Positions 3,475 to 42,161 of a DNA stretch of 64,000 nucleotides are shown here, in pieces (position 1 is the first letter of the stretch; every line of letters begins with the position of its first letter). A program made the translations under genes and the position numbers. The DNA comes from a virus, in IMG/VR virus record IMGVR_UViG_3300040801_004314, positions 36,665-100,664 of that record; one strand, written 5' to 3'. The notes under the pieces were generated by a model. It worked only from the letters and a program-made list of their open reading frames with translations. It ran no database searches and was not told the origin of the DNA.

Positions 3475-5103
3475 ATGAATAAACAAAGATTTAAAATAAT
3501 AAATGATATACTTCAAGAAAAGCCTACTAGATTAAGAGAGTCGTATTTTATTAAAAACTATAATGATGTCTATAATAAAATAGTAAAATATACTGAAGGC
3601 ATAGATTTACCTTTTAAACAAAGAATGTGGCACTGGATAAATGAACTACCGACTATTTATGTCTGTAAGTGTGGTAAACCTACTAGTTTCTATAAGAATT
3701 GGAAACATGGATATAGGAGTGCATGTTCACCAAAGTGCGCACAAACAAATGATAAAACCAAGGAAAAAAGAAGAAAAACTACATTAGAAAAATATGGCGT
3801 AGATAATATTGCTAAATTGGAAGAAATTAAAAAAAAGCAAGAGGAAACTAACATACAAAAGTATGGTCATAAATCTACATTTCAAAACGAAGAAGTTCAG
3901 AAAAAATGGAGAAAAACTATCGAAGATAGATATAGTGTAGATCATTATTTTAAAACTAATGAGTTTAAGAAAAAGGCTAAGAAAACATCTAAAAAAAAAT
4001 ACGGGAAAGAACATTACGTACAATCAAAATCATACAAAGAAAAACTTAAAGAAATTGGATTCAATGATATATTGAAACAAATAAATATCAATAAACATCT
4101 TAGGAAATATGATAATATAGGTTTAGAATTTATAGATTTAAGCGATAGAATATTAACATTAAAAGGTGAATGCGGACATCAATTTGAAATACATTATGAT
4201 TCTTTAAAACGAAGAATAGAGAATTCTTATGATTATTGCACTATATGTAATCCAGTTAATTCAGTACAATCACAAGATGAGAAAGTACTAATAAAGTGGT
4301 TAATGGAAAAAAATATAGATCTCGTAGAGAAGGATCGAAGCTTAGGTATTGAGCTAGATATATTAATACCTTCCAAGAAAATAGCAATAGAGTTTAATGG
4401 ATTATATTGGCATTCTGAATTATTTAAAAATAACAATTACCATTTAGACAAAACTACAATATGTAGAAACAATGATATAAGATTAATACACATATGGGAA
4501 GATGATTGGAAATACAATAAAACAATTGTAAAATCTATTATTTTGAATAGCCTTGGGCTGATTGAGAAAAAAGTATATTCTAGAAAATGTGAAATAACTA
4601 CCTTAAGTAACAAAGAAAAAAACTTATTTTTAGAAAAAAATCACATACAAGGGAAGTGTGTATCAAGTGTTAATTTGGCACTTATGTATAATAATGAAGT
4701 AGTCTCTGTTATGACATTTGGGAAACGCAAAATGAGTAATAAAAACGAATTTGAGTTAATAAGGTTTTGTAATAAAGTAAACAATGTAGTAATCGGTGGG
4801 GCTTCAAGATTATTTAACTATTTCATTAACAATTACCAAAGTGATCATATAATTTCTTTTGCTGATATATCTCATTTTGAAGGTGGTGTATATAAGAAAT
4901 TGGGATTTAAATTTGTACACAGGACTATCCCAAATTATTGGTGGGTAGTTAGTGGTATTAGGTTTCACCGCTTCACCTATAATAAAAAAAGGTTAGTGAA
5001 AGAAGGTGCTGATCCTAATAAAACCGAAGTTCAAATAATGTATGATAAAGGATATTTTAGAATATTTGGTTGTGGTCAAGATAAGTACGTTTATCATAGG
5101 TAA
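3475..5103 (+). CDS. Hef-like free-standing endonuclease: YGVDN repeats + Zn ribbon + Vsr/DUF559-like nuclease + C-terminal Mom-like GNAT domain
   Basis: KYGVDN repeats; CxC/CxxC; ELDILIPSKKIAIEFNGLYWH...IHIWEDDW; NHIQG...ELIRFC...GGASRLF...SFAD...YKKLGF. Confidence 0.75.
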   Translation: MNKQRFKIINDILQEKPTRLRESYFIKNYNDVYNKIVKYTEGIDLPFKQRMWHWINELPTIYVCKCGKPTSFYKNWKHGYRSACSPKCAQTNDKTKEKRRKTTLEKYGVDNIAKLEEIKKKQEETNIQKYGHKSTFQNEEVQKKWRKTIEDRYSVDHYFKTNEFKKKAKKTSKKKYGKEHYVQSKSYKEKLKEIGFNDILKQININKHLRKYDNIGLEFIDLSDRILTLKGECGHQFEIHYDSLKRRIENSYDYCTICNPVNSVQSQDEKVLIKWLMEKNIDLVEKDRSLGIELDILIPSKKIAIEFNGLYWHSELFKNNNYHLDKTTICRNNDIRLIHIWEDDWKYNKTIVKSIILNSLGLIEKKVYSRKCEITTLSNKEKNLFLEKNHIQGKCVSSVNLALMYNNEVVSVMTFGKRKMSNKNEFELIRFCNKVNNVVIGGASRLFNYFINNYQSDHIISFADISHFEGGVYKKLGFKFVHRTIPNYWWVVSGIRFHRFTYNKKRLVKEGADPNKTEVQIMYDKGYFRIFGCGQDKYVYHR

Positions 5104-5130: not shown

Positions 5131-5919
5131 ATGAACATCAAAGATACTTTTCTTAAATTAGTTGATAAGACACATCCACATGGAACAGAACATCAATTAT
5201 TAGAATCCTTACCAGAATTAAGCAAAGATAGTTTCGGGAATTACTATAGGATTATAGGCACTAATCCAACCATTATGTTTAATTCTCATTTAGACAATTA
5301 TGCTAAAGAACAAACCTCAACTAATGTATACACTAAATATATAGAAAATGAAGAATATGTATTCAGTGATAATGGAATATTAGGTGCTGATGATAAGGCA
5401 GGTGTGTCACTTATGCTTTATATGATTTCTAAAGAAATAGATGGGTTGTATTACTTCTTTACTGGGGAAGAAGTAGGTACTATTGGATCTTCATCTTTAG
5501 CATCCAAATTTGAAGATATTCCTTATTTAAAAAACATTACAAAATGTATATCTTTTGATAGAAGAGGTGAAAGTTCTATAGTAACTCATCAATCTGGTAA
5601 AAGGTGTTGCTCTGACGTATTTGCACACAGTCTAATGGAAGAACTATCTGATAATGACATGGAATATCAACTAGATACAACAGGTGTTTATAGCGACTCT
5701 GCTAGCTTCATAGGCAATATTAGAGAAGTGACTAACATATCGGTTGGGTATTATGATGAGCATACATCAAAAGAATCACAGAATTTAACATTTTTAGAAA
5801 AGCTATCCAAGGCATTAGTTTCTATAGAATGGGATAATTTAATTGTTCATAGAAAGGTTAAAACACCTAATGGACATTTATTAACTTTTGAGTCTTTTAG
5901 GTATAAATTAGTAAACTAA
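5131..5919 (+). CDS. M20/M28-family zinc peptidase
   Basis: SHLD, LGADDKAG, GEEVG, SFDRRG, YSDS and EHT metal/catalytic motifs. Confidence 0.85.
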   Translation: MNIKDTFLKLVDKTHPHGTEHQLLESLPELSKDSFGNYYRIIGTNPTIMFNSHLDNYAKEQTSTNVYTKYIENEEYVFSDNGILGADDKAGVSLMLYMISKEIDGLYYFFTGEEVGTIGSSSLASKFEDIPYLKNITKCISFDRRGESSIVTHQSGKRCCSDVFAHSLMEELSDNDMEYQLDTTGVYSDSASFIGNIREVTNISVGYYDEHTSKESQNLTFLEKLSKALVSIEWDNLIVHRKVKTPNGHLLTFESFRYKLVN

Positions 5920-6315: not shown

Positions 6316-6693
6316 ATGAAACACTTAAAACTGTGGGAGAATTTAAACGAAAATGGCGACTTTTATAGCAAATTTTGGATAGAGGCACTATCGGAAAAGT
6401 ACGGAACTTGTGAGATAGACGAATACAAACCAATTAAGCCATTATATGGTGGTGGTAAATTCTCACAAATAGGATATTTATGTAATGTAGAAGATAAAGA
6501 TGTGTCGAAATTTATATTAGAGGGTATTACAAATAATGGTAAATTTATACACTCAAGTATAATTACATTAGACCAAAATGGTGATGCACTATCACACGGC
6601 ACTATTTATATAGATAATACTAAAGGAGATACATATTCAGATAATATACTTAAAGTGGTTGATGAAATCGATAAATATATAGAAAATATGTAA
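6316..6693 (+). CDS. Hypothetical protein with MKHLKLWENLNE N-terminal (capsid-targeting-like) motif
   Basis: ORF preceded by TAATATATA at 6290-6298. Confidence 0.7.
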   Translation: MKHLKLWENLNENGDFYSKFWIEALSEKYGTCEIDEYKPIKPLYGGGKFSQIGYLCNVEDKDVSKFILEGITNNGKFIHSSIITLDQNGDALSHGTIYIDNTKGDTYSDNILKVVDEIDKYIENM

Positions 6694-6701
6694 AAATATA
6701 T

Positions 6702-6739
6702 AAACATTTTTCATAATTCATATATAATATATATATTTG
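6702..6739 (+). promoter_or_regulatory. Tandem promoters for tmRNA: phage AAAC-N15-TATATAA motif plus Bacteroidota-type -7 box TATATTTG
   Basis: AAAC at 6702, TATATAA at 6721, TATATTTG at 6732-6739, 12 nt before tmRNA G1. Confidence 0.65.
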
Positions 6740-6751
6740 CAAGATAACCAT

Positions 6752-7121
6752 GGGGAAGTTTAGAATAGATTTATGGTGAATTAGTAATTATGCAAGTATC
6801 GGATTGTTTTTTAACCGATTAATAAATTAAGTAACAATTTTTTTAAGCGGAAACGTAACAGAAGTAGGAACTCGTGAAGATGTAGTAGCGACTCTACAAA
6901 ACAACATGATCCAAGTAGAGGATCTAGCAACTGCCTAACAGTAGTTACTAAAAAATCTACAGTTGATCTACACAATTAAAAATGTAGGATGGTTTTTTAT
7001 ATTTTTAGAGTTTGTCAAAAAATTATATATTTTGTTTGTTTAGAAAAATAAACTAAACTTGTAAACGATTAGTTATTGATTACTGTTGAAGACAAGGTGG
7101 GCGGTACACCTTCTTCTCCAC
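6752..7121 (+). ncRNA. ssrA: tmRNA (one-piece); predicted tag (A)GNVTEVGTREDVVATLQNNMIQVEDLATA
   Basis: Acceptor stem GGGGAAG(6752-58)/CTTCTCC(7113-19) with G3.U70 and discriminator A. T arm AAGGTG-GGCGGTA-CACCTT. Helix 2 GCAAGT/ACTTGT. pk1 ATCGG/CCGAT plus ATTGTT/AACAAT. Tag ORF 6849-6938 follows TAAGC. Confidence 0.9.
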
Positions 7122-7126
7122 AAAAC

Positions 7127-7153
7127 AAAAACCCACCAAAAGGTGGGTTTTTT
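7127..7153 (+). terminator. Terminator after tmRNA
   Basis: AAAAACCCACC-aaaa-GGTGGGTTTTTT. Confidence 0.9.
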
Positions 7154-7174
7154 ATAAACTTCAAAAATTATAAA

Positions 7175-7291
7175 ATGAAAATATTAATATGTAAGCTATT
7201 TCATAAAAAATATCATAAAAGAGAATGGTATGGATGTGAGGGTGCAGAAGGAGCAAAAGATTATTATATAACATGCAGTAAATGCAATTAA
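7175..7291 (+). CDS. Small Cys/His (putative Zn-binding) protein, 38 aa
   Basis: MKILICKLFHKKYH...CSKCN with A-rich leader; the longer 7076 start overlaps the tmRNA and is spurious. Confidence 0.55.
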   Translation: MKILICKLFHKKYHKREWYGCEGAEGAKDYYITCSKCN

Positions 7292-7294
7292 ACT

Positions 7295-7591
7295 ATGAAT
7301 ACAGAACAAAAGCAACCAAGATGGATCAGAAAGGCATGGAGTATAGCCAATGTTATGCGATGGCTTTCTCGTAAAAGTGAACGAACCATTGAGGTTGAAA
7401 TACCAAAAGGGTTTATGAATTGTGGAGTTTGCATTTGTAACCATTTTATAGCCGACACAAACAATAGTGCAAATTGGGATACGATTAAATTCCCATTACC
7501 CAAACCTAAATACAAGTGGAATATTAAATGCTACACAGGTGATATTGATAAACCCGAAAAGCAAAGAGTAGTGCTGATTGATAAGTACTAG
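7295..7591 (+). CDS. Hypothetical protein; reads through a cassette core site (GTTATGC at 7352)
   Basis: 98-aa ORF followed by GCATAAC (7597-7603), complementary to the internal GTTATGC. Confidence 0.7.
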   Translation: MNTEQKQPRWIRKAWSIANVMRWLSRKSERTIEVEIPKGFMNCGVCICNHFIADTNNSANWDTIKFPLPKPKYKWNIKCYTGDIDKPEKQRVVLIDKY

Positions 7592-7634
7592 CTTGTGCAT
7601 AACATATTGTGTATGAACCTGTAAATTATAAAAA

Positions 7635-7745
7635 ATGAATTGGATTAAACGATTATTTAGTAAAAAAGAAACTACTAAGCAATGTGATACACACGTTATT
7701 GTGAGTAGTGCTTGTGAATGTGGTAGACAAAAAAATGCGGTGTAA
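7635..7745 (+). CDS. 36-aa ORF starting inside an attC-like site and crossing its right arm (possibly decayed)
   Basis: MNWIKRLFSKKETTKQCDTHVIVSSACECGRQKNAV*; the CDTHVIVSS segment is the site arm and core. Confidence 0.45.
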   Translation: MNWIKRLFSKKETTKQCDTHVIVSSACECGRQKNAV

Positions 7746-7792
7746 GAAGTGGGTTGTGTTTAAAAACAGGTATATGGTACACTTAGCATTAC

Positions 7793-7852
7793 TTACAACG
7801 GTTTGGATATGTACTGCATCCCGTAGGGTATAGCATATAGGTAATGTTATAC
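7793..7852. repeat. attC-like site, 60 bp
   Basis: TTACAAC-ggtttgg-ATATGTACTGCATCCC-gta-GGGTATAGCATAT-aggtaat-GTTATAC; hairpin with bulges. Confidence 0.7.
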
Positions 7853-7960
7853 CCTTTTTTTTGAGCGTTTGAAAAATAATTTACAGAAAATTGTATTTTA
7901 TCTGGTAGTTAATACAGAAAGCTGTATATTTGAAGTATAATAATTAAAACAAAAGAAATT

Positions 7961-8194
7961 ATGATAGTAATTTGCATACAAAATTTATATAAGTCAACAT
8001 ACGAATGTGATGTTTTTACAGAAGGCAACGAATATGAAATAATTGAAGAATATAAAAATAGAAGTAAAAATAAAATGTGTAGAGTGAAATCAGATATTAT
8101 TTTAGGTGATGGTGGTTTAGACTTTTATTTTGATGAGGGTGATAGCTTTCCTTATTATAACTTCAAGGATTATTTTAAAATAATATCTGATTAA
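7961..8194 (+). CDS. Small hypothetical cassette protein with its own host-type promoter (TATATTTG 7925-7932)
   Basis: 77-aa ORF with A-rich leader. Confidence 0.75.
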   Translation: MIVICIQNLYKSTYECDVFTEGNEYEIIEEYKNRSKNKMCRVKSDIILGDGGLDFYFDEGDSFPYYNFKDYFKIISD

Positions 8195-8196
8195 CT

Positions 8197-8322
8197 GTTT
8201 ATAGGGGTTGAGTGTATGATCAGTAGCCTACACGAACATTTGATAAATGAACAAAACTTTAAATTAATAACCGAGCAATAGTAAAAACGCCTAACGGCTA
8301 TTGCTTATGCACATTGTTAGGC
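8197..8322. repeat. attC-like site, left core degenerate
   Basis: Arms GTGTATGATCAGTAGCC (8212-28) / GGCTATTGCTTATGCAC (8296-8312), followed by GTTAGGC. Confidence 0.65.
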
Positions 8323-8332
8323 AACGTTTATT

Positions 8333-8545
8333 ATGAAATATAAAATAGGTGATAAAGTTTGGATAAAACCAATAGATGCTGGTGATTTAGAAGGTGTAGT
8401 AATAGGTTTTCAAAAGGTAGAACCTTATAATCCAATTATTGAGTTTGAATATTGCGGTGAAAAGAAAAGCAATGCCTTTGATTTAAATAGAATTAATCCT
8501 TTTGGTGATGGTAAGGTTAAGCCTGTGTATGTTAGGGTTATTTAA
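8333..8545 (+). CDS. Small cassette protein (SH3/KOW-like beta barrel, KYKIGDKV start)
   Basis: 70-aa ORF filling the space between GTTAGGC and ACCTAAC. Confidence 0.75.
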   Translation: MKYKIGDKVWIKPIDAGDLEGVVIGFQKVEPYNPIIEFEYCGEKKSNAFDLNRINPFGDGKVKPVYVRVI

Positions 8546-8549
8546 TGTT

Positions 8550-8681
8550 ACCTAACGTTAAAATATAAGAACAGTAGCGTGTTCACAAAAACAGACTGTT
8601 CAGGTTACGTGAACATTAGTAAATAATGAACAAAGTAATAGTTAAACACTGCCTAGCTATTATTTTTATATAGTGTTGGCA
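8550..8681. repeat. attC-like site, ~132 bp
   Basis: ACCTAAC; arms TATAAGAACAGTAGC (8564-78) / GCTATTATTTTTATA (8656-70); inner hairpin GTGTTCAC/GTGAACAT; GTTGGCA. Confidence 0.72.
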
Positions 8682-8698
8682 GTAGTTAATTTTTAATT

Positions 8699-8917
8699 AT
8701 GAAAAAATTTTTATTAGTAAAGCTGAAAGAAGAAATACGTGTTAGTGGTGGTTGTTCTCCAGATGACCCTGAATTTGCTTATGTAGTAGGCGATTGTTTT
8801 AAAAGCACAGGGAAGTATTTTGCAGATAAGAAAGAAGCTCTTAAAGAAGCAAAAGCAAAAACTTTAAAAAACCAAGAAACAGAAGTGTTTGGTGTAATTA
8901 AAATAGATATGCCTTAA
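8699..8917 (+). CDS. Small hypothetical cassette protein
   Basis: 72-aa ORF flanked by a 15/16-matching inverted repeat whose right copy overlaps the stop codon. Confidence 0.75.
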   Translation: MKKFLLVKLKEEIRVSGGCSPDDPEFAYVVGDCFKSTGKYFADKKEALKEAKAKTLKNQETEVFGVIKIDMP

Positions 8918-9124
8918 TTACTGCCAACAATATTATATACACACCTTTTATATAAATTATTCATAACCAGCTAATTAATATTATTAAAACAAAAGGGTTA
9001 TAAATATTTGTGTTTAAAAGTTTATATTCTTAATTATGATCCAAGTATAAATGTATCATATTTATACTACATCAATAAACTTCACAAAAAATACACCTAT
9101 AAGACCAAAAGGCTTTTTATTCAT

Positions 9125-9469: not shown

Positions 9470-9976
9470 ATGATTGGTGTTTTTAGGGGCGAAAATCACT
9501 TCTTATCTAATTTCTACCCATGTGTTATAAACCATGATGGGATTAGATATCCAAGTGTAGAACACTATTATATAGCATTAAAGGCAAATAGTAAATTGGT
9601 TAAGTTTAATGGCAAGGATTATAAATTAAGAGACTTTAGGTTAATGGTTTCTGGTTTAGATAATCCAGGACTTGCTAAAAAAGTTGGAAAAGAAATAATA
9701 GCTAGAAAAGATTGGGATGAGCATAGGATGATAGTGTTAAAGGATGGTATATACGAAAAGTTTAAAGATCCTGTTCTTAGAAAGAAACTCATAGATACTG
9801 GTAAACAAGAATTAGTTGAGGGTAACTGGTGGCATGATAATAATTTTGGATCATGCTTTTGTGATAAATGTAAAGATAAGAAAGGAAAGAATAAATTAGG
9901 GAAGATAATAATGAAAGTGCGTGATGAGATAACAGGTAATGGTAAAAGAGGTTTAGAGCAAATATTTTTTAAATAA
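9470..9976 (+). CDS. NADAR (YbiA-like) family protein
   Basis: FLSNFYP, YPSVEHYY, AKKVGK, KF, L..TG..ELVEGN.WHD, G.NKLGKIIMKVR. Confidence 0.9.
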   Translation: MIGVFRGENHFLSNFYPCVINHDGIRYPSVEHYYIALKANSKLVKFNGKDYKLRDFRLMVSGLDNPGLAKKVGKEIIARKDWDEHRMIVLKDGIYEKFKDPVLRKKLIDTGKQELVEGNWWHDNNFGSCFCDKCKDKKGKNKLGKIIMKVRDEITGNGKRGLEQIFFK

Positions 9977-10036: not shown

Positions 10037-11245
10037 ATGGCAAAGAAAAAAAGTAAAGAATTTGAATTTAGTAAAGTAGGTACTATATTAGATAATATAT
10101 CCAAAAAAGTTCCAATTCGAATAGAAAAAGAAGTAACCAAGAGAACGTTTATTTCAACTGGTGTTTACTTACTAGATGCAGCACTATCTGCACATATGTT
10201 AGAGGGTGGTATCCCAACTAATAGAATATCAGCTTTTGCTGGGGAATCAGGAAGTGGTAAATCATTTTTAGCATACTCAGTTGTTAAGAACGCACAGGCT
10301 AAGGGATATTCGTGTATTTATATTGATACAGAGCAATCAATTGACTTAGAAGATCTACCAAACTATGGTATTGACACTGACTTGAACAAGTTTAGATTAA
10401 TTCGCTCCAACAAAGTAGAGGATATAAACATTACCTTAACTCAGTTAGTTGATGATTTGAAAGAGCAAAAATTAGCAGGTGTTAAATTACCAAAAATATT
10501 ACTTGTCTTAGACTCACTAGGTCAGATGGCATCTAATAAAGAAAAAGAAGACTTGCTAAAAGGTGATATTAAGCAAGATATGACTAAAGCAAAAGCACTT
10601 AGCTCTATGTTTAGAAGTTTAAATATGGATTTAGGGTTATTGGATATTCCTTTCTTAGTGATAAACCAAACTTATAAAACTCTTGATATGTTTCCTAAGG
10701 AAATGCTAAGGGGTGGTAACGGTCTTTTATATTCTGCTTCTGTTATTGGGTTCTTATCAAAATCAAAACTTAAGACAGGCAATGAAGATGATATGGACTT
10801 AGGCTCATCGGGTATTAATGTTCTATTTAAAACTTCTAAAAACAGACTTGCTAAACCTAAAAAGATAAGATTCGATATATCATTTGTTGAAGGCATGAAT
10901 CCTTACTCAGGTCTAGAAGGCTTCTGTAGACCTGAATTCTTTGATCAGATTGGGATAGCAAAGGGTAAAATGGAAGTAGATAAAGAAACTGGTGAGATGA
11001 AATTTAAGCCAGGTGGTAATAAGTATTATGTTAGGCATTTAGATAAGTCCTTTTTCTTAAAGAAGCTACACAAACCCGAAATTTTCACACAGGAAGTTTT
11101 AGAAAATATGTGTCCTATTGTTAATGATTACTTTAGGTTTAAATCAACTGATGAGTTAGAAGAACTTGATAAAGAGTTTGAAGAAAAGCTTGATGAGGTA
11201 GATAACTTCACAGACTCTACTGATGCAGAAGATTTATTTGATTAA
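10037..11245 (+). CDS. uvsX: RecA-like recombinase (UvsX)
   Basis: ISTG...LDAALS, Walker A GESGSGKS, YIDTE, LVLDSLG, DMTKAK, GGNGLLYSAS. Confidence 0.92.
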   Translation: MAKKKSKEFEFSKVGTILDNISKKVPIRIEKEVTKRTFISTGVYLLDAALSAHMLEGGIPTNRISAFAGESGSGKSFLAYSVVKNAQAKGYSCIYIDTEQSIDLEDLPNYGIDTDLNKFRLIRSNKVEDINITLTQLVDDLKEQKLAGVKLPKILLVLDSLGQMASNKEKEDLLKGDIKQDMTKAKALSSMFRSLNMDLGLLDIPFLVINQTYKTLDMFPKEMLRGGNGLLYSASVIGFLSKSKLKTGNEDDMDLGSSGINVLFKTSKNRLAKPKKIRFDISFVEGMNPYSGLEGFCRPEFFDQIGIAKGKMEVDKETGEMKFKPGGNKYYVRHLDKSFFLKKLHKPEIFTQEVLENMCPIVNDYFRFKSTDELEELDKEFEEKLDEVDNFTDSTDAEDLFD

Positions 11246-36253: not shown

Positions 36254-36931
36254 TTAGTAAGTATATTTTTTATCTTTATAAATATTAGTTAACTCATCAA
36301 TATCCATACTTTTTATTGTTTCCAATACAATATCTTCAAATGAACTCCAAAAGGCATGATTGTTATCAGTTAATTTTTTGATAGATTCGTAATTAATAAC
36401 TCTATATAAGTCTGTGAATACTTGTGACTCACTATACCAATGAAGACCTGCACAATTAGTAAATATAACCATAGATTCTTGTCTATTATAGTCTACGTTG
36501 AAATCAGTTATACTTTTAAGACCGAATTGTTTTATGTCTCTTTCTTTTAGCTCGTATGTTGGGTTGTTTCTGAATTTAACTTGGACTGTGCATGGACCAC
36601 CCTCTATATTTTTGCCATATCCATCTACACCATTATCATCTTCGGCTGGAACAGGGAGATAATCATACACGCCTACTCTATTGTCTTTACCATATATCAA
36701 AAAGAAAACTTCTGCAAATATCTCAAATAAATCACCTGCAAACTTCATTGTACCTAATTTTACATCTTCTTCTATGTTTTGATCAGAGTATCCATATTCT
36801 AATGACTTTCTACTAATTAGATTTATCTGCTTGCATATATTGTCAAAATTCCCAGCAGATGCCATCATAGAAAAGTATTGCCCGAAATCTTTTTGGACAA
36901 TATTATAAAAAGATTCATGTTTTATTATCAT
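36254..36931 (-). CDS. Mrr-like PD-(D/E)xK restriction endonuclease domain protein
   Basis: GDLFEIFAE...EDDNGVDG...TVQVKFR...VIFTN matches the Mrr/Type ISP nuclease pattern (E...D...QxK). Confidence 0.7.
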   Translation of the reverse strand: MIIKHESFYNIVQKDFGQYFSMMASAGNFDNICKQINLISRKSLEYGYSDQNIEEDVKLGTMKFAGDLFEIFAEVFFLIYGKDNRVGVYDYLPVPAEDDNGVDGYGKNIEGGPCTVQVKFRNNPTYELKERDIKQFGLKSITDFNVDYNRQESMVIFTNCAGLHWYSESQVFTDLYRVINYESIKKLTDNNHAFWSSFEDIVLETIKSMDIDELTNIYKDKKYTY

Positions 36932-38777: not shown

Positions 38778-40304
38778 CTATATTTCGGCTTTAAGCTTGG
38801 AAATTTTATTGGTTATCTTTTTAAGCTCTTCTTTTCTGGACATCATAATTTTTTTATTCTTCTTTCTATCAGCGTACACGTCCTCTAACATTTTTAATGT
38901 AGGTGACAGCCTTTTTTCAAAAACTGTCTTGTTAACGCACACTACGTGGTTATCAGGGTCTATTTTCTTACCATTTGTACACACTGTTTTGTCATTAGGG
39001 CTTTGCAAACCTACAAAATTTTCTGGTGCAATGTAAAATTGCCTTTGTGTGGTTGGATAAAGCGAAGCGAAATCATAGCAGACAACCCACTGATTTAGAC
39101 CTACAACAGGATCTCGAACCCAACCACCTTTAATGGTTGACTCAGCAGGACCTTTATCATCTTTGAATAAAACAGTATTATCCTGTTCTCTAAACCGATT
39201 CCTTAAGACACCTTCTGTTATTGCTAGTGATGCCAAAGAGTTATTCATATGGGATATTACATCTACTATTCTAATTCTAGCTAATGAAGATATCGCAAAT
39301 ATTATAGATATGTAGTTTCTAGATTCGTGTATTTTTTGAACTAGAACACTATCCACTGCGTTATAATACATAAAGGTTTCAAAATCATCTTCATATAATT
39401 TTTGTAATGATCCAGTATATTTAATTTTTTCTACATCTACTAATTTACTTGATACAAAATCTAATGATGAACTTTCTTTCACTTTGATAGATGTATCTGC
39501 TATCTCATATAATTGCATGTAGTCAAAAATCATTCTATGTGCAGGTAGCTCAAAATCTGCACCCCACTGTTTTGTTATCTTTCTAGTAAGTGAAGATACA
39601 TTTGGATTAATATTGTATTCTTTACCATTGACCGTTTTAGATATTTTCCTAGCTCTATTAACCAAATATAACCAGTCATACTTAAGGAAGTTCCACCCTG
39701 TTAACACTGGCATTTTTGGGACCATTTTATTGAAAAAATTATACATCATATCAAATTCATCATCATATTTTACATATCTGAATTTATATTCTGTACCAAA
39801 CTTCTTAAAATATTTATTGGTATTATCTTTAATTCTTTTCTGCATATCCTCAGGCATATCTTTTAAACCTAATAATATTATTTTATCGTCATACACTATT
39901 GATATAGATAGTACTCTGGTTGCTGCTCCCTCCTTTATTACATTTCCTTCGTTGTCCAAAATGTCGGCTGCTTCTGGAAATCCATCTACAATTTCTGTTT
40001 CAATATCAATGAAATATATCTTTGGTATATTAAATGCGAAAATTTCTTCTTTTTCTTCCTCTGGAAGATCATCTAAGAAATTATAGACAGTATATCTATC
40101 TGGATAATTTACCTCAACTTGTTTCACACGTTTATCATCCCAAGATTTATATTTAGGATCTTGATGTGGATCATTATCATCACACGATACGTATTTCATT
40201 GGGTTATCCCAATTGTAATACTTTAGTTTTAGTTCACCGTTTTTATCAACGTAACTAACTACTAATCTTTTTGTCTTTTTTAAGTATTGAGTTTCTACTA
40301 GCAT
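38778..40304 (-). CDS. Family B DNA polymerase, N-terminal part only (3'-5' exonuclease + motif A; gp43A-like)
   Basis: FIDIETE (ExoI), TGWNFLKYDW (ExoII), YNAVDS (ExoIII), IKGGWV, YDFASLYP; ends in the fingers helix with no KxxxNSxYG or YGDTDS. Confidence 0.88.
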   Translation of the reverse strand: MLVETQYLKKTKRLVVSYVDKNGELKLKYYNWDNPMKYVSCDDNDPHQDPKYKSWDDKRVKQVEVNYPDRYTVYNFLDDLPEEEKEEIFAFNIPKIYFIDIETEIVDGFPEAADILDNEGNVIKEGAATRVLSISIVYDDKIILLGLKDMPEDMQKRIKDNTNKYFKKFGTEYKFRYVKYDDEFDMMYNFFNKMVPKMPVLTGWNFLKYDWLYLVNRARKISKTVNGKEYNINPNVSSLTRKITKQWGADFELPAHRMIFDYMQLYEIADTSIKVKESSSLDFVSSKLVDVEKIKYTGSLQKLYEDDFETFMYYNAVDSVLVQKIHESRNYISIIFAISSLARIRIVDVISHMNNSLASLAITEGVLRNRFREQDNTVLFKDDKGPAESTIKGGWVRDPVVGLNQWVVCYDFASLYPTTQRQFYIAPENFVGLQSPNDKTVCTNGKKIDPDNHVVCVNKTVFEKRLSPTLKMLEDVYADRKKNKKIMMSRKEELKKITNKISKLKAEI

Positions 40305-40355
40305 AATATTTTTTTATATACCTTATATGAACAAAAATTAAAATGTTTATATATA

Positions 40356-42161
40356 ATGTGTATGTGTGATAATAGTAAGTTTTATAAATTCTCAGAATCT
40401 GGTATTAAAAAAAGGAATCCTGACCTTTGGAAAGCTATTAATGATCATATAAGTATTGATTATATTAAATTTAAAGAAAAGTTTTATTTATATGATAATA
40501 AAATACATAACATACCTAAGTGTTATTGTGGGAATCCAGTTAAGTTCATAGACATGAAAAAAGGATTTAGAGAATTTTGCTCTAAAAAATGTGTTTATGG
40601 TTCAAAAAAAGTAAAGAAGAAAAGAAAAGAAACATCTATAAGCAGGTATGGTGTCGATAACCCATCCAAATCATCTAAAGTTAAAAATAAAGTAACAGAA
40701 ACTAATAAAGAGAAATTTGGTCATGATTGGGCTACTCAAAACGATAAAGTATTGAAGTCTATAAAAGAGACTAATTTAAAAAAATACGGTGTTGATAACC
40801 CATCCAAGTTAAAAGAAATTAGAGAAAAAGCCAAAAGTACTATGGTAGATAAGTATGGTGTAGAATATGCTATGCATTCACCTATTATAAAAGAAAATCT
40901 AAAAGAGTATTTTATAGAAAAGTTTGGTGTTGATAATCCTCTAAAGGTAAAGAAAACAAGAGACAAGATTAAAGAAACTATGCTGAATAGGTATGGTGTA
41001 GAATACGCACTTCAAAGTAAAGAGGTTGTTGAAAAACTAAAAGAGACAAATAAGAGTAAATATAACTCTGATTTTTATATCACATCAAAAGATTGTAGAG
41101 ATAAAACAAGAAAACATACAAATCAAAAAAATAAAAAAATAGTAGACGATAAGAGATATACATTAAATGATTCGTCTACAAGAGAGTATGATATAAAGTG
41201 TTCAAAATGTAACGATTCATTCACTATACAAAGGCAGTTATACCGAAACAGGTTAAAAAATGATGAAGAAATTTGTTTAATATGTAATCCCATATCTAAA
41301 AATACTTCAATAGCTGAAAAGGAAATATTAGACTATATAAAAAGTATTTACAAAGGCATTGTTTTAGAAAATAATAGGATTAATAATAAAGAAATTGATA
41401 TTTATCTACCAGAATTAAAATTAGGTTTCGAATATAATGGTTTATATTGGCATTCCGAGTTAAATAAGGATAAAAACTATCACTTAGATAAAACTGAGTT
41501 TTTTAATAATATTGGAATAAACCTTATACAAATATGGGAAGATGAGTGGACTAGCAAGAAAGATATAGTAAAGTCCATGATAAATAATAAATTATCTAGA
41601 TCTAATAGAATATTTGCCAGGAAATGTACTGTTAAGGAGATAACAGACAATAAATTAGCTAAACAGTTTATAGAAGATAACCACATACAAGGCTTTGTTG
41701 GATCTAAAATAAAGTTAGGGTTGTTTTATAATGAAGAACTAATTAGCATAATGACATTTGGGAAAGTTAGAAAATCATTAGGGCAGTCTAACAAGGGTAA
41801 TAATTATGAGTTGCTTAGATTTTGTAATAAGTTAGGATTTACAGTCGTTGGGGGTGCATCTAAATTGTTTTCATATTTCAAAAAGAACTTTGTATTTGAT
41901 AAATTAATTTCTTATTCATTAAATAGCCATTCTAAAGGTGGTGTTTATTCTAAAATGGGATTTATTATAGATGGAAATTCTAGACCTGATTATTTTTGGT
42001 GTAAAAATGGTATAAGGTATCATAGATTTAATTTCAGAAAAGACAAATTAGTTAGTCAAGGTGAAGATATAAACAAAACTGAAAAAGATATAATGTATGA
42101 AAAGGGTTACTTTAGATTATTCGGATGTGGATCTAAAAAGTGGATTTATGAATCAGAATAG
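40356..42161 (+). CDS. Hef-like endonuclease: YGVDNP repeats + Vsr-like nuclease + Mom-like GNAT; paralog of 3475-5103
   Basis: Multiple (Y/F)GVDNP repeats; EIDIYLPELKLGFEYNGLYWH; IWEDEW; NHIQG...ELLRFC...GGASKLF. Confidence 0.78.
   Translation: MCMCDNSKFYKFSESGIKKRNPDLWKAINDHISIDYIKFKEKFYLYDNKIHNIPKCYCGNPVKFIDMKKGFREFCSKKCVYGSKKVKKKRKETSISRYGVDNPSKSSKVKNKVTETNKEKFGHDWATQNDKVLKSIKETNLKKYGVDNPSKLKEIREKAKSTMVDKYGVEYAMHSPIIKENLKEYFIEKFGVDNPLKVKKTRDKIKETMLNRYGVEYALQSKEVVEKLKETNKSKYNSDFYITSKDCRDKTRKHTNQKNKKIVDDKRYTLNDSSTREYDIKCSKCNDSFTIQRQLYRNRLKNDEEICLICNPISKNTSIAEKEILDYIKSIYKGIVLENNRINNKEIDIYLPELKLGFEYNGLYWHSELNKDKNYHLDKTEFFNNIGINLIQIWEDEWTSKKDIVKSMINNKLSRSNRIFARKCTVKEITDNKLAKQFIEDNHIQGFVGSKIKLGLFYNEELISIMTFGKVRKSLGQSNKGNNYELLRFCNKLGFTVVGGASKLFSYFKKNFVFDKLISYSLNSHSKGGVYSKMGFIIDGNSRPDYFWCKNGIRYHRFNFRKDKLVSQGEDINKTEKDIMYEKGYFRLFGCGSKKWIYESE

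Follow-up and report, generated by a model that had tools for sequence, protein, structure and literature searches.

Between approximately 7.3 and 9.0 kb of the analyzed window (64,000 nt, positions 36,665–100,664 of IMG/VR record IMGVR_UViG_3300040801_004314), a short array of putative integron-like cassettes could be recognized, which would form part of the accessory region of a very large Bacteroidota phage. In the proposed organization, bodies and linkers would alternate. Each body would consist of a small ORF between the two halves of a 12-nt inverted repeat, with conserved outer triplets (GTT and AAC) and a centre specific to each body, and a linker would be an imperfect hairpin, in many cases with a start codon and an A-rich leader in its loop. 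The leader ORF is predicted to cross the right arm in phase, to read GTT as valine and to run on into the body. The linker would thus serve as a portable translation start with a leader of about 20 residues, and start-less bodies would be expressed as N-terminal fusions; since the phase is identical everywhere, any leader would fit any body. We consider it likely that these phage cassettes consist of bodies and leader-bearing hairpin linkers that produce such fusions, with translation being inferred. Sequence comparison could demonstrate how the modules are built, where they break, that the arms covary and that the frames are open; it was not shown that the modules are moved by a site-specific reaction on folded single strands, nor by which enzyme.

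The IMG/VR record consisted of 100,664 bp, with a CheckV completeness estimate of 22%. The nearest DNA matches of the window came from two uncultured phages, 635 and 642 kb in length, as well as from Flavobacterium, Cellulophaga, and Tenacibaculum phages. The array occurs in a stretch of small co-oriented ORFs, flanked on one side by a conserved non-coding region (6700–7155) ending in a terminator and on the other side by a NADAR-domain gene and a RecA/UvsX-like gene. The following genes were located around this stretch:
3475–5103: gene of a DUF7487 protein
5131–5919: gene of an M28-type peptidase
9470–9976: gene of a NADAR-domain protein
10037–11245: gene of a RecA/UvsX-like recombinase

Several other sequence features were observed in the same phage. 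Approximately 10–12 tandem copies of a 42-nt unit (14 codons) were present within a coding region at 259–842, and a Glu/Lys-rich low-complexity stretch follows them at 866–1086. The region 6700–7155 contains about 430 nt of non-coding sequence with 70–73% identity to the two uncultured 635–642 kb phages, and it is closed by a strong terminator hairpin (7127–7152). By eye, its ends could be paired like an acceptor stem beside a T-arm-like hairpin, and position 6938 marks the end of an in-frame tag-like ORF. Based on these traits it may be a divergent tmRNA, which relies on by-eye pairing and for which neither ARAGORN nor Rfam makes a call. ARAGORN and Rfam at curated thresholds gave no match in the window, and a permissive Rfam scan of 6650–7200 returned the terminator hairpin as its sole match. 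CRISPR repeats with a 66-nt period are present in the record about 27,000 nt before the window start. These surfaced in the inverted-repeat search because the repeat starts with GTT, ends with AAC and has complementary ends, a likeness that is probably a coincidence of repeat design.

The initial annotation had proposed that two ORFs are translated through cassette recombination sites. The first of these, ORF 7295–7591, was confirmed together with its quoted codons; codons 16–21 occupy 7340–7357, and GTT is codon 20 (7352–7354). The features of this ORF are as follows:
7175–7291, + strand: 38-codon ORF directly upstream, in place of the left arm that relatives have at the first site
7295–7351, + strand: leader 1, the start codon and codons 1–19 of ORF 7295–7591
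7333–7348, + strand: remnant of the right arm of leader 1
7349–7351, + strand: 3-nt spacer of leader 1
7352–7363, + strand: 5' inverted repeat of body 1, starting with GTT (codon 20) and followed by ATG as the next codon (7355)
7352–7591, + strand: coding part of body 1 (codons 20–98), a confident beta domain from about codon 31
7592–7603, + strand: 3' inverted repeat of body 1, directly after the stop codon and ending in AAC

Body 1 is thus bracketed by a 12-nt inverted repeat (7352–7363 and 7592–7603). The first site has no left arm in the window, where ORF 7175–7291 stands instead. This upstream ORF encodes four Cys residues and a basic, leader-like N-terminus, and no family match could be found for it. 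ORF 7295–7591 is a real gene, with 123 relatives in a database of 5.8 billion proteins along with 140 cluster representatives, and its N-terminus is modular. Across 185,579 species genomes, the family occurred only once, on a phage-like 71-kb contig of a MAG. The conserved core begins at about residue 31, and many distant relatives begin at about residue 30. The AlphaFold model revealed a confident beta domain at residues 31–98 (pLDDT 85–94) and low confidence at residues 1–30 (pLDDT 53–59). Pfam, PHROGs, and Foldseek against the PDB did not assign a function to the ORF or its neighbours; the best Foldseek match of the set was a weak alpha-crystallin-like sandwich (E = 0.07).

Comparison of the relatives of ORF 7295–7591 revealed homology breakpoints at the GTT codon, as expected if a site and a cassette had been joined there. 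In a clade comprising L034/L036, L007, L008/L040/L041, L038/L039/L042, and L009, the DNA was 77–91% identical from GTT onward, while identity in the 90 nt before GTT was at the random level (about 50–60%), and the switch was confined to a single 15-nt window at GTT. Each of the five upstream linkers of this clade had its own strongly complementary arms (−25 to −37 kcal/mol, z down to −7) and its own in-frame ATG. The body 1 family as a whole was preceded by at least 10 different types of in-frame leader. Upstream of the relatives L020 and L030–L035, a full hairpin with the same right arm as the first site of the window could be observed, in the order AAC box, left arm, loop with ATG, right arm in the translated frame, 3-nt spacer, and GTT. 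On the 3' side, a 12-nt box ending in AAC (7592–7603 in the window) was kept after the stop codon in about 10 unrelated contexts, and homology stopped there. All body 1 relatives diverged immediately past the AAC box, the linkers being different in every context right after AAC. Since both the upstream leaders and the downstream linkers differ, bodies must have been exchanged at both ends. These alignments demonstrate, as far as homologous loci can, exchange of bodies and linkers at GTT (to within a 15-nt window) and at AAC. A cassette made of a linker and the ORF downstream of it, with crossover at the AAC box only, had initially been considered on the basis of L030–L035; it was dropped as breaks were seen at GTT and the downstream linkers were variable.

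The coding capacity of the leaders was evaluated by walking upstream from GTT in 13 independent body 1 contexts in all three frames. The GTT frame remained open for 18–47 codons in 12 of the 13 contexts (9 codons in L002). An ATG at least 15 codons upstream was present in the GTT frame in 12/13 contexts, compared to 1/26 for the other two frames, and the resulting ATG-initiated open frames in the 12 contexts spanned 15–33 codons. Alternatively, ORF 7295–7591 could be translated only from ATG 7355, so that the upstream stretch would be an untranslated site and no fusion would be formed. An ATG or GTG lies right behind GTT in most body 1 relatives, which would suit this reading, as would the low model confidence of the first 30 residues and the start of many distant relatives at about residue 30. 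Moreover, L002 has a stop nine codons upstream of GTT and no in-frame upstream ATG, and it therefore requires a start directly after GTT. However, the excess of ATG-initiated open frames in one frame speaks against exclusive initiation at 7355. The L027/L037 and L005/L006 lineages need an upstream start because they have ATA after GTT, where most relatives have ATG, and several bodies of the second leader family lack any Met. Both starts may be used, and we regard initiation at 7355 alone as unlikely. The body of ORF 7295 probably works with either kind of linker, with or without a leader, and in the window's own copy a start at 7355 cannot be excluded as an alternative. Translation of the leaders remains an inference from the open frames and the start-less bodies, in the absence of RNA, ribosome, or protein data.

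The second ORF, 7635–7745, was also located as proposed, with codons 16–25 at 7680–7709 and GTT at 7695–7697. It belongs to the following features:
7604–7697, + strand: linker 2, a leader hairpin
7608–7619, + strand: left arm of linker 2
7635, + strand: start codon of linker 2, in the loop
7679–7694, + strand: right arm of linker 2
7695–7697, + strand: spacer of linker 2
7635–7745, + strand: ORF 2 (36 codons), a widespread leader of about 21 codons and 15 codons of a vestigial cassette
7698–7799, + strand: mini-cassette of about 100 nt, with 12-nt inverted repeats at 7698–7709 and 7788–7799

The repeats of the mini-cassette form 9 Watson-Crick and 2 G.T pairs of 12, and the 5' repeat begins with A instead of the G of relatives. 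The ORF ends 45 nt short of the 3' repeat, and with only 15 codons reaching into the cassette it is a vestige. The leader itself is widespread. It was found in frame with 17 or more unrelated bodies, which occur in viral contigs as well as in Polaribacter phage P12002S, so that the expectation of a site-encoded peptide on otherwise unrelated ORFs was fulfilled. According to tblastn, it begins an 82-residue protein of P12002S, in a diverged yet recognizable copy, and the leader linker also stands in L033. When IMG/VR was scanned with a pattern, 64 places were retrieved, and about one quarter of them had the full leader followed by different proteins of 55–102 residues. Of 14 leader-fused bodies of at least 25 residues, one pair was related and the rest were unrelated; three had no Met at all, and in several the first Met was at least 25 residues in. 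The scan pattern fixed the first eight codons of the leader, and their conservation in the contig set is therefore not evidence. A pattern-free protein search using one fused protein as the query yielded 23 full-length relatives and 7 proteins that share only the leader of about 25 residues (84–88% identity) and have other bodies. In an alignment of 14 leader linkers, a single indel, of one codon, was present within the leader ORF, whereas the untranslated part of the loop had indels of 1, 5, 6, and 8 nt.

Such reuse could also mean that the leader functions as a signal peptide, such as a targeting tag, and is carried by many small phage proteins, with the DNA hairpin being secondary. The 84–88% identity of the leader on unrelated bodies in the unbiased search, its persistence in recognizable form in P12002S, and the similar first 14 residues of Cellulophaga phage phi19:3 gp060, which has no obvious right arm, are all in agreement with this. 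Nevertheless, at least ten unrelated leaders serve one body family, which implies that no particular peptide is required, and the covariation of the arms described below indicates selection on pairing. There is also no cleavage motif or localization data to back a signal peptide, and we consider this explanation quite improbable. The organization into exchangeable leaders and bodies is further supported by the repeats at the body ends.

In all 16 scorable loci with the ORF 7635 leader, the 12 nt beginning at GTT had an inverted complement near their own stop codon. Its offset from the stop was −8 to +4 in 14/16 loci, the exceptions being the truncated ORFs of the window (+45) and of L033 (+92). 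In L033 (344–920), the body behind the shared leader was shortened by a frameshift in an A run, owing to which the 3' repeat lies 92 nt past the premature stop; the intact version in L077 has 68 codons. The specificity of the repeat centres was evaluated in 18 bodies, which included the leader loci, the other bodies of the window, and one more from P12002S. Two window bodies bracketed in the same way, both with a start codon of their own, are as follows:
8316–8556, + strand: body with ORF 8333–8545, inverted repeats at 8316–8327 and 8545–8556
8675–8928, + strand: body with ORF 8699–8917, inverted repeats at 8675–8686 and 8917–8928 (11 Watson-Crick pairs and 1 G.T pair of 12)

The central six positions of the repeats paired at 5.56/6 within a body compared to 2.31/6 across bodies. 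Own repeat pairs scored at least 5 of 6 in 17/18 bodies, and 17 distinct centres were present among the 18 bodies. The outer triplets were kept around all 18, with GTT opening each body and AAC located at the stop codon or overlapping it. An earlier control, in which the 5' repeat could take its best partner from any place within 900 nt, had no discriminating power, since the ends of the repeats are conserved; it was replaced by the comparison of centre positions only, at a fixed place. By analogy with integrons, circularization of a body would join its two repeats into one perfect stem, as an integron-type crossover leaves. In P12002S (L063, record 39286–41766), nearly every intergenic gap of the early region had an AAC box, located at the stop codon or overlapping it, followed by a left arm; one gap contained a 145-nt long linker, and one ORF was bracketed by a perfect 13-nt inverted repeat. 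This array greatly exceeds the pair of sites described in the sister phage P12002L.

In folding analysis, the window's own sites were no better than shuffled sequence. Single-strand folds of 7255–7365 and 7588–7715 gave z = −0.1 to −0.9 on either strand, and arm-to-arm duplex energies gave z = −1.1 and −0.2 against shuffles. The seven-base core words occurred 8 times record-wide versus 6.5 in shuffled sequence and 7 times versus 6.9, with 5/15 occurrences falling within 6933–8322. Direct and inverted repeat searches and short-word self-BLAST detected no repeat family for the sites, which are alike in shape but not in sequence. Taken alone, the two leader sites of the window are no better than chance, and they are worn copies; the second has weak arms, a changed first base of the 5' repeat, and only a 15-codon tail. 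They were accepted as real on account of their homology to strong copies elsewhere. If weak inverted repeats and open frames had simply arisen by chance in AT-rich DNA, z-scores near zero, core words at the shuffled rate, and the result of a loose record-wide search for 12-nt inverted repeats, in which the count equalled that of shuffles, would all be expected. The homolog comparisons (boundaries, breakpoints, frame test, leader reuse, repeat centres, and covariation) contradict this, and chance can hardly be credited as an explanation.

The hairpins of the relatives were considerably stronger. The leader hairpin of linker 2 recurs in 13 other loci with an arm helix of 17 pairs. Among the 14 aligned sequences, 92.4% of the cells were paired and 7 pairs had changed on both sides, whereas slid controls paired at 20–50%. 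Duplex energies in the linkers of relatives were −30 to −38 kcal/mol (z = −5 to −9), and strong arms could be observed in ten other linker types. The arm cells of 13 sequences comprised 162 Watson-Crick, 44 G.T, 4 A.C, and 11 other cells, and two positions were nearly always G.T (one in 13 and the other in 11 of the 13–14 aligned sequences). The sense-strand duplex was more stable than the antisense duplex by 3–12 kcal/mol in most linkers, and this bias was also seen in other linker types. It fits top-strand DNA as well as an mRNA hairpin with the start codon displayed in an A-rich loop. The latter would be well matched to hosts in which Shine-Dalgarno pairing plays a minor part.

Searches for the tyrosine recombinase domain (PF00589) yielded no match in the 100-kb record, which represents 22% of the estimated genome, in the 635-kb related phage LR745206, which was searched whole, or in three small linker-carrying phages (P12002S, Tenacibaculum phage JQ, and Flavobacterium phage filifjonk9-1). 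The recombinase adjoining the phi18:3 array did not match the integron-integrase model. Alternatively, the hairpins may be mRNA structures that function in start presentation, cistron insulation, or processing and not recombination sites, with exchange being brought about by ordinary phage recombination that merely ends where the conserved linkers end, as in the promoter-stem-loop cassettes of T4-type phages. The excess of G.T over A.C cells (44 versus 4), the two positions that are nearly always G.T, the stability of the sense duplex, and the lack of a recombinase in the five phage records searched all point in this direction. The linkers are also 77–81% identical across unrelated phages and could therefore be substrates for homologous exchange, and shuffling between conserved regulatory cassettes has a precedent (PMC2839356). 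However, the three bases conserved per body end are not enough to support homologous exchange, and the joints are nonetheless sharp; moreover, body-specific inverted repeats that close to one hairpin in a circular cassette are the mark of an integron-type crossover. An mRNA role with ordinary recombination is a possibility that deserves attention, even if we lean away from it; it bears only on how the modules move and is compatible with translation through the sites.

Three further linkers of the window differ from the leader hairpins in carrying no leader or in being long and non-coding:
7800–7863, + strand: linker 3, short and without a leader, GTT at 7846, similar to stretches of L030 and L059
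7925–7932, + strand: Bacteroidota-type −7 promoter box ahead of ORF 7961–8194
8189–8327, + strand: long non-coding linker A
8189–8195, + strand: AAC box of linker A, over the stop codon
8212–8228, + strand: left block of linker A
8289–8322, + strand: inner short hairpin of linker A
8316–8327, + strand: 5' repeat of the next body, at the end of linker A
8557–8686, + strand: long non-coding linker B
8675–8686, + strand: 5' repeat of the next body, at the end of linker B

A terminator-like hairpin (7825–7855) with a T run overlaps linker 3, and the region of the −7 box was 74% identical to an early intergenic region of Flavobacterium phages. This succession of a terminator-like hairpin and a −7 box was restricted to linker 3; no conserved promoter was found in linkers A and B, and none in the leader linkers either. 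The best local repeat of the region was a perfect 17-nt inverted repeat (8088–8104/8176–8192, 71 nt apart) inside the 3' part of ORF 7961–8194. Linker A had 81% identity to an intergenic stretch of Cellulophaga phage phi18:3. Linker B shared a 68-nt identical run with an intergenic stretch of Tenacibaculum phage JQ, with about 81% identity overall. The genes flanking the two linkers differ from those in phi18:3 and JQ. The initial annotation had also assigned start motifs to the loops of the two long sites. The nine-base motif is indeed present at 8247 and 8626, but it was neither enriched (4 occurrences versus 2.3 expected) nor conserved, being absent from the homologous linkers of phi18:3 and JQ, and it was rejected as a meaningful start. 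In the long linkers, the loop ORFs are 6 and 15 codons in length, end before the right arm is reached, and lack conservation; linkers A and B are followed by bodies with their own ATG.

At the level of the family, the proposal that the site supplies a start codon and an N-terminal peptide and the cassette supplies the rest could be upheld by the breakpoints, the reuse of leaders, and the open frames. The claim of chimeric proteins has to be narrowed, because the site adds a short generic leader and not a domain, the copies in the window are worn, and the second ORF is a vestige. What appears to be new is the regular, phase-fixed use of a hairpin linker as a start codon and leader for start-less cassettes, together with exchange at both body ends, the sense-strand bias, and the failure to find an integrase in the records searched. 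In the literature, no paper was found on leaders embedded in such sites or on phase-matched fusion as a rule. A broader interpretation would be an integrase-free exchange of cassettes that is widespread in marine Flavobacteriia phages and resembles exon shuffling, with all junctions in phase 0, the sense strand (DNA or RNA) being the active one and the leader perhaps serving as an address tag for changing effectors; this remains speculative, and we would not expect it to hold in full.

Integron cassettes are taught as self-contained ORFs with a site, and translation across the site is seen as a class 1 oddity. Here, the joining site would regularly carry a start codon and a leader in fixed phase, and many cassettes are start-less. 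This would provide a concrete mechanism by which phages try out and express small accessory genes, with leaders and bodies recombined many times. Gene callers and protein clustering can be expected to mis-start leader-fused proteins, or to mis-group them because unrelated proteins share about 25 residues. The missing integrase and the sense-strand bias leave the moving enzyme or nucleic acid undecided; the idea can be examined directly in isolates, namely the Polaribacter phages P12002S and P12002L and the phages of Cellulophaga.

Among the known systems are the attC clusters without an integrase that Qi et al. 2023 (PMC9892861) described in virulent phages, one of them Polaribacter phage P12002L. 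Site 1 of P12002L gave no recombinants with IntI1, and a second, dissimilar site recombined (PMC9892861). Site 1 belongs to the same site family as the linkers described here, with the same layout of boxes and arms. CALINs are defined by the missing integrase near the array, a description that the present phage arrays fit, and like phage CALINs they consist of small co-oriented cassettes. As in attC, the linkers are imperfect hairpins with an outer AAC...GTT box pair, both kept in all aligned linkers, and an inner pair of arms; the leader linkers meet the expectation of an inner L-box hairpin with covariation. A cassette begins with bases complementary to the box that follows its own ORF, which is the attC trait of the G|TT crossover. 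The purine/pyrimidine pattern of the seven-base attC consensus was only loosely kept, and no extrahelical (bulged) bases for strand choice were identified in the linkers. In contrast to an integron cassette, in which the ORF travels with its 3' site, the linkers are not tied to the upstream ORF, as both neighbours vary. Further differences are the 12-nt outer boxes with a free centre, the better folding of the sense strand where the integron rule is an active bottom strand, and the start codon and in-phase leader ORF held by many linkers.

In T4-type phages, accessory genes are shuffled between conserved regulatory stem-loops (PMC2839356, PMC4122927). These PeSL cassettes resemble the present array in that conserved stem-loop modules stand between small accessory genes in hyperplastic regions and are shuffled between phages. 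They contain a promoter and a terminator. However, they are exchanged by PeSL homology and have no body-specific inverted repeats, internal start codon or leader, or fixed reading phase. The internal proteins of T4 offer another parallel, since their capsid-targeting sequence is a short conserved N-terminal peptide on otherwise unrelated small proteins of a variable locus; we know of no hairpin architecture for it.

The closest precedent for translation through a site is attI1, in which ORF-11 and ORF-18 are translated across the recombination site, and variants of AAC(6')-Ib carry a foreign N-terminus by fusion; attC sites can also contain short ORFs (PMC8876359). The leader linkers fit the ORF-11 type in that a short ORF inside the site brings its own initiation signals, crosses the crossover point, and would serve cassettes that lack such signals. 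In attI1, the cassette usually supplies the stop and expression relies on translational coupling, whereas in-frame read-through into the body is predicted here. Fusions at the single attI site are rare accidents, while in the phage arrays they would be the rule across many attC-like linkers and bodies.
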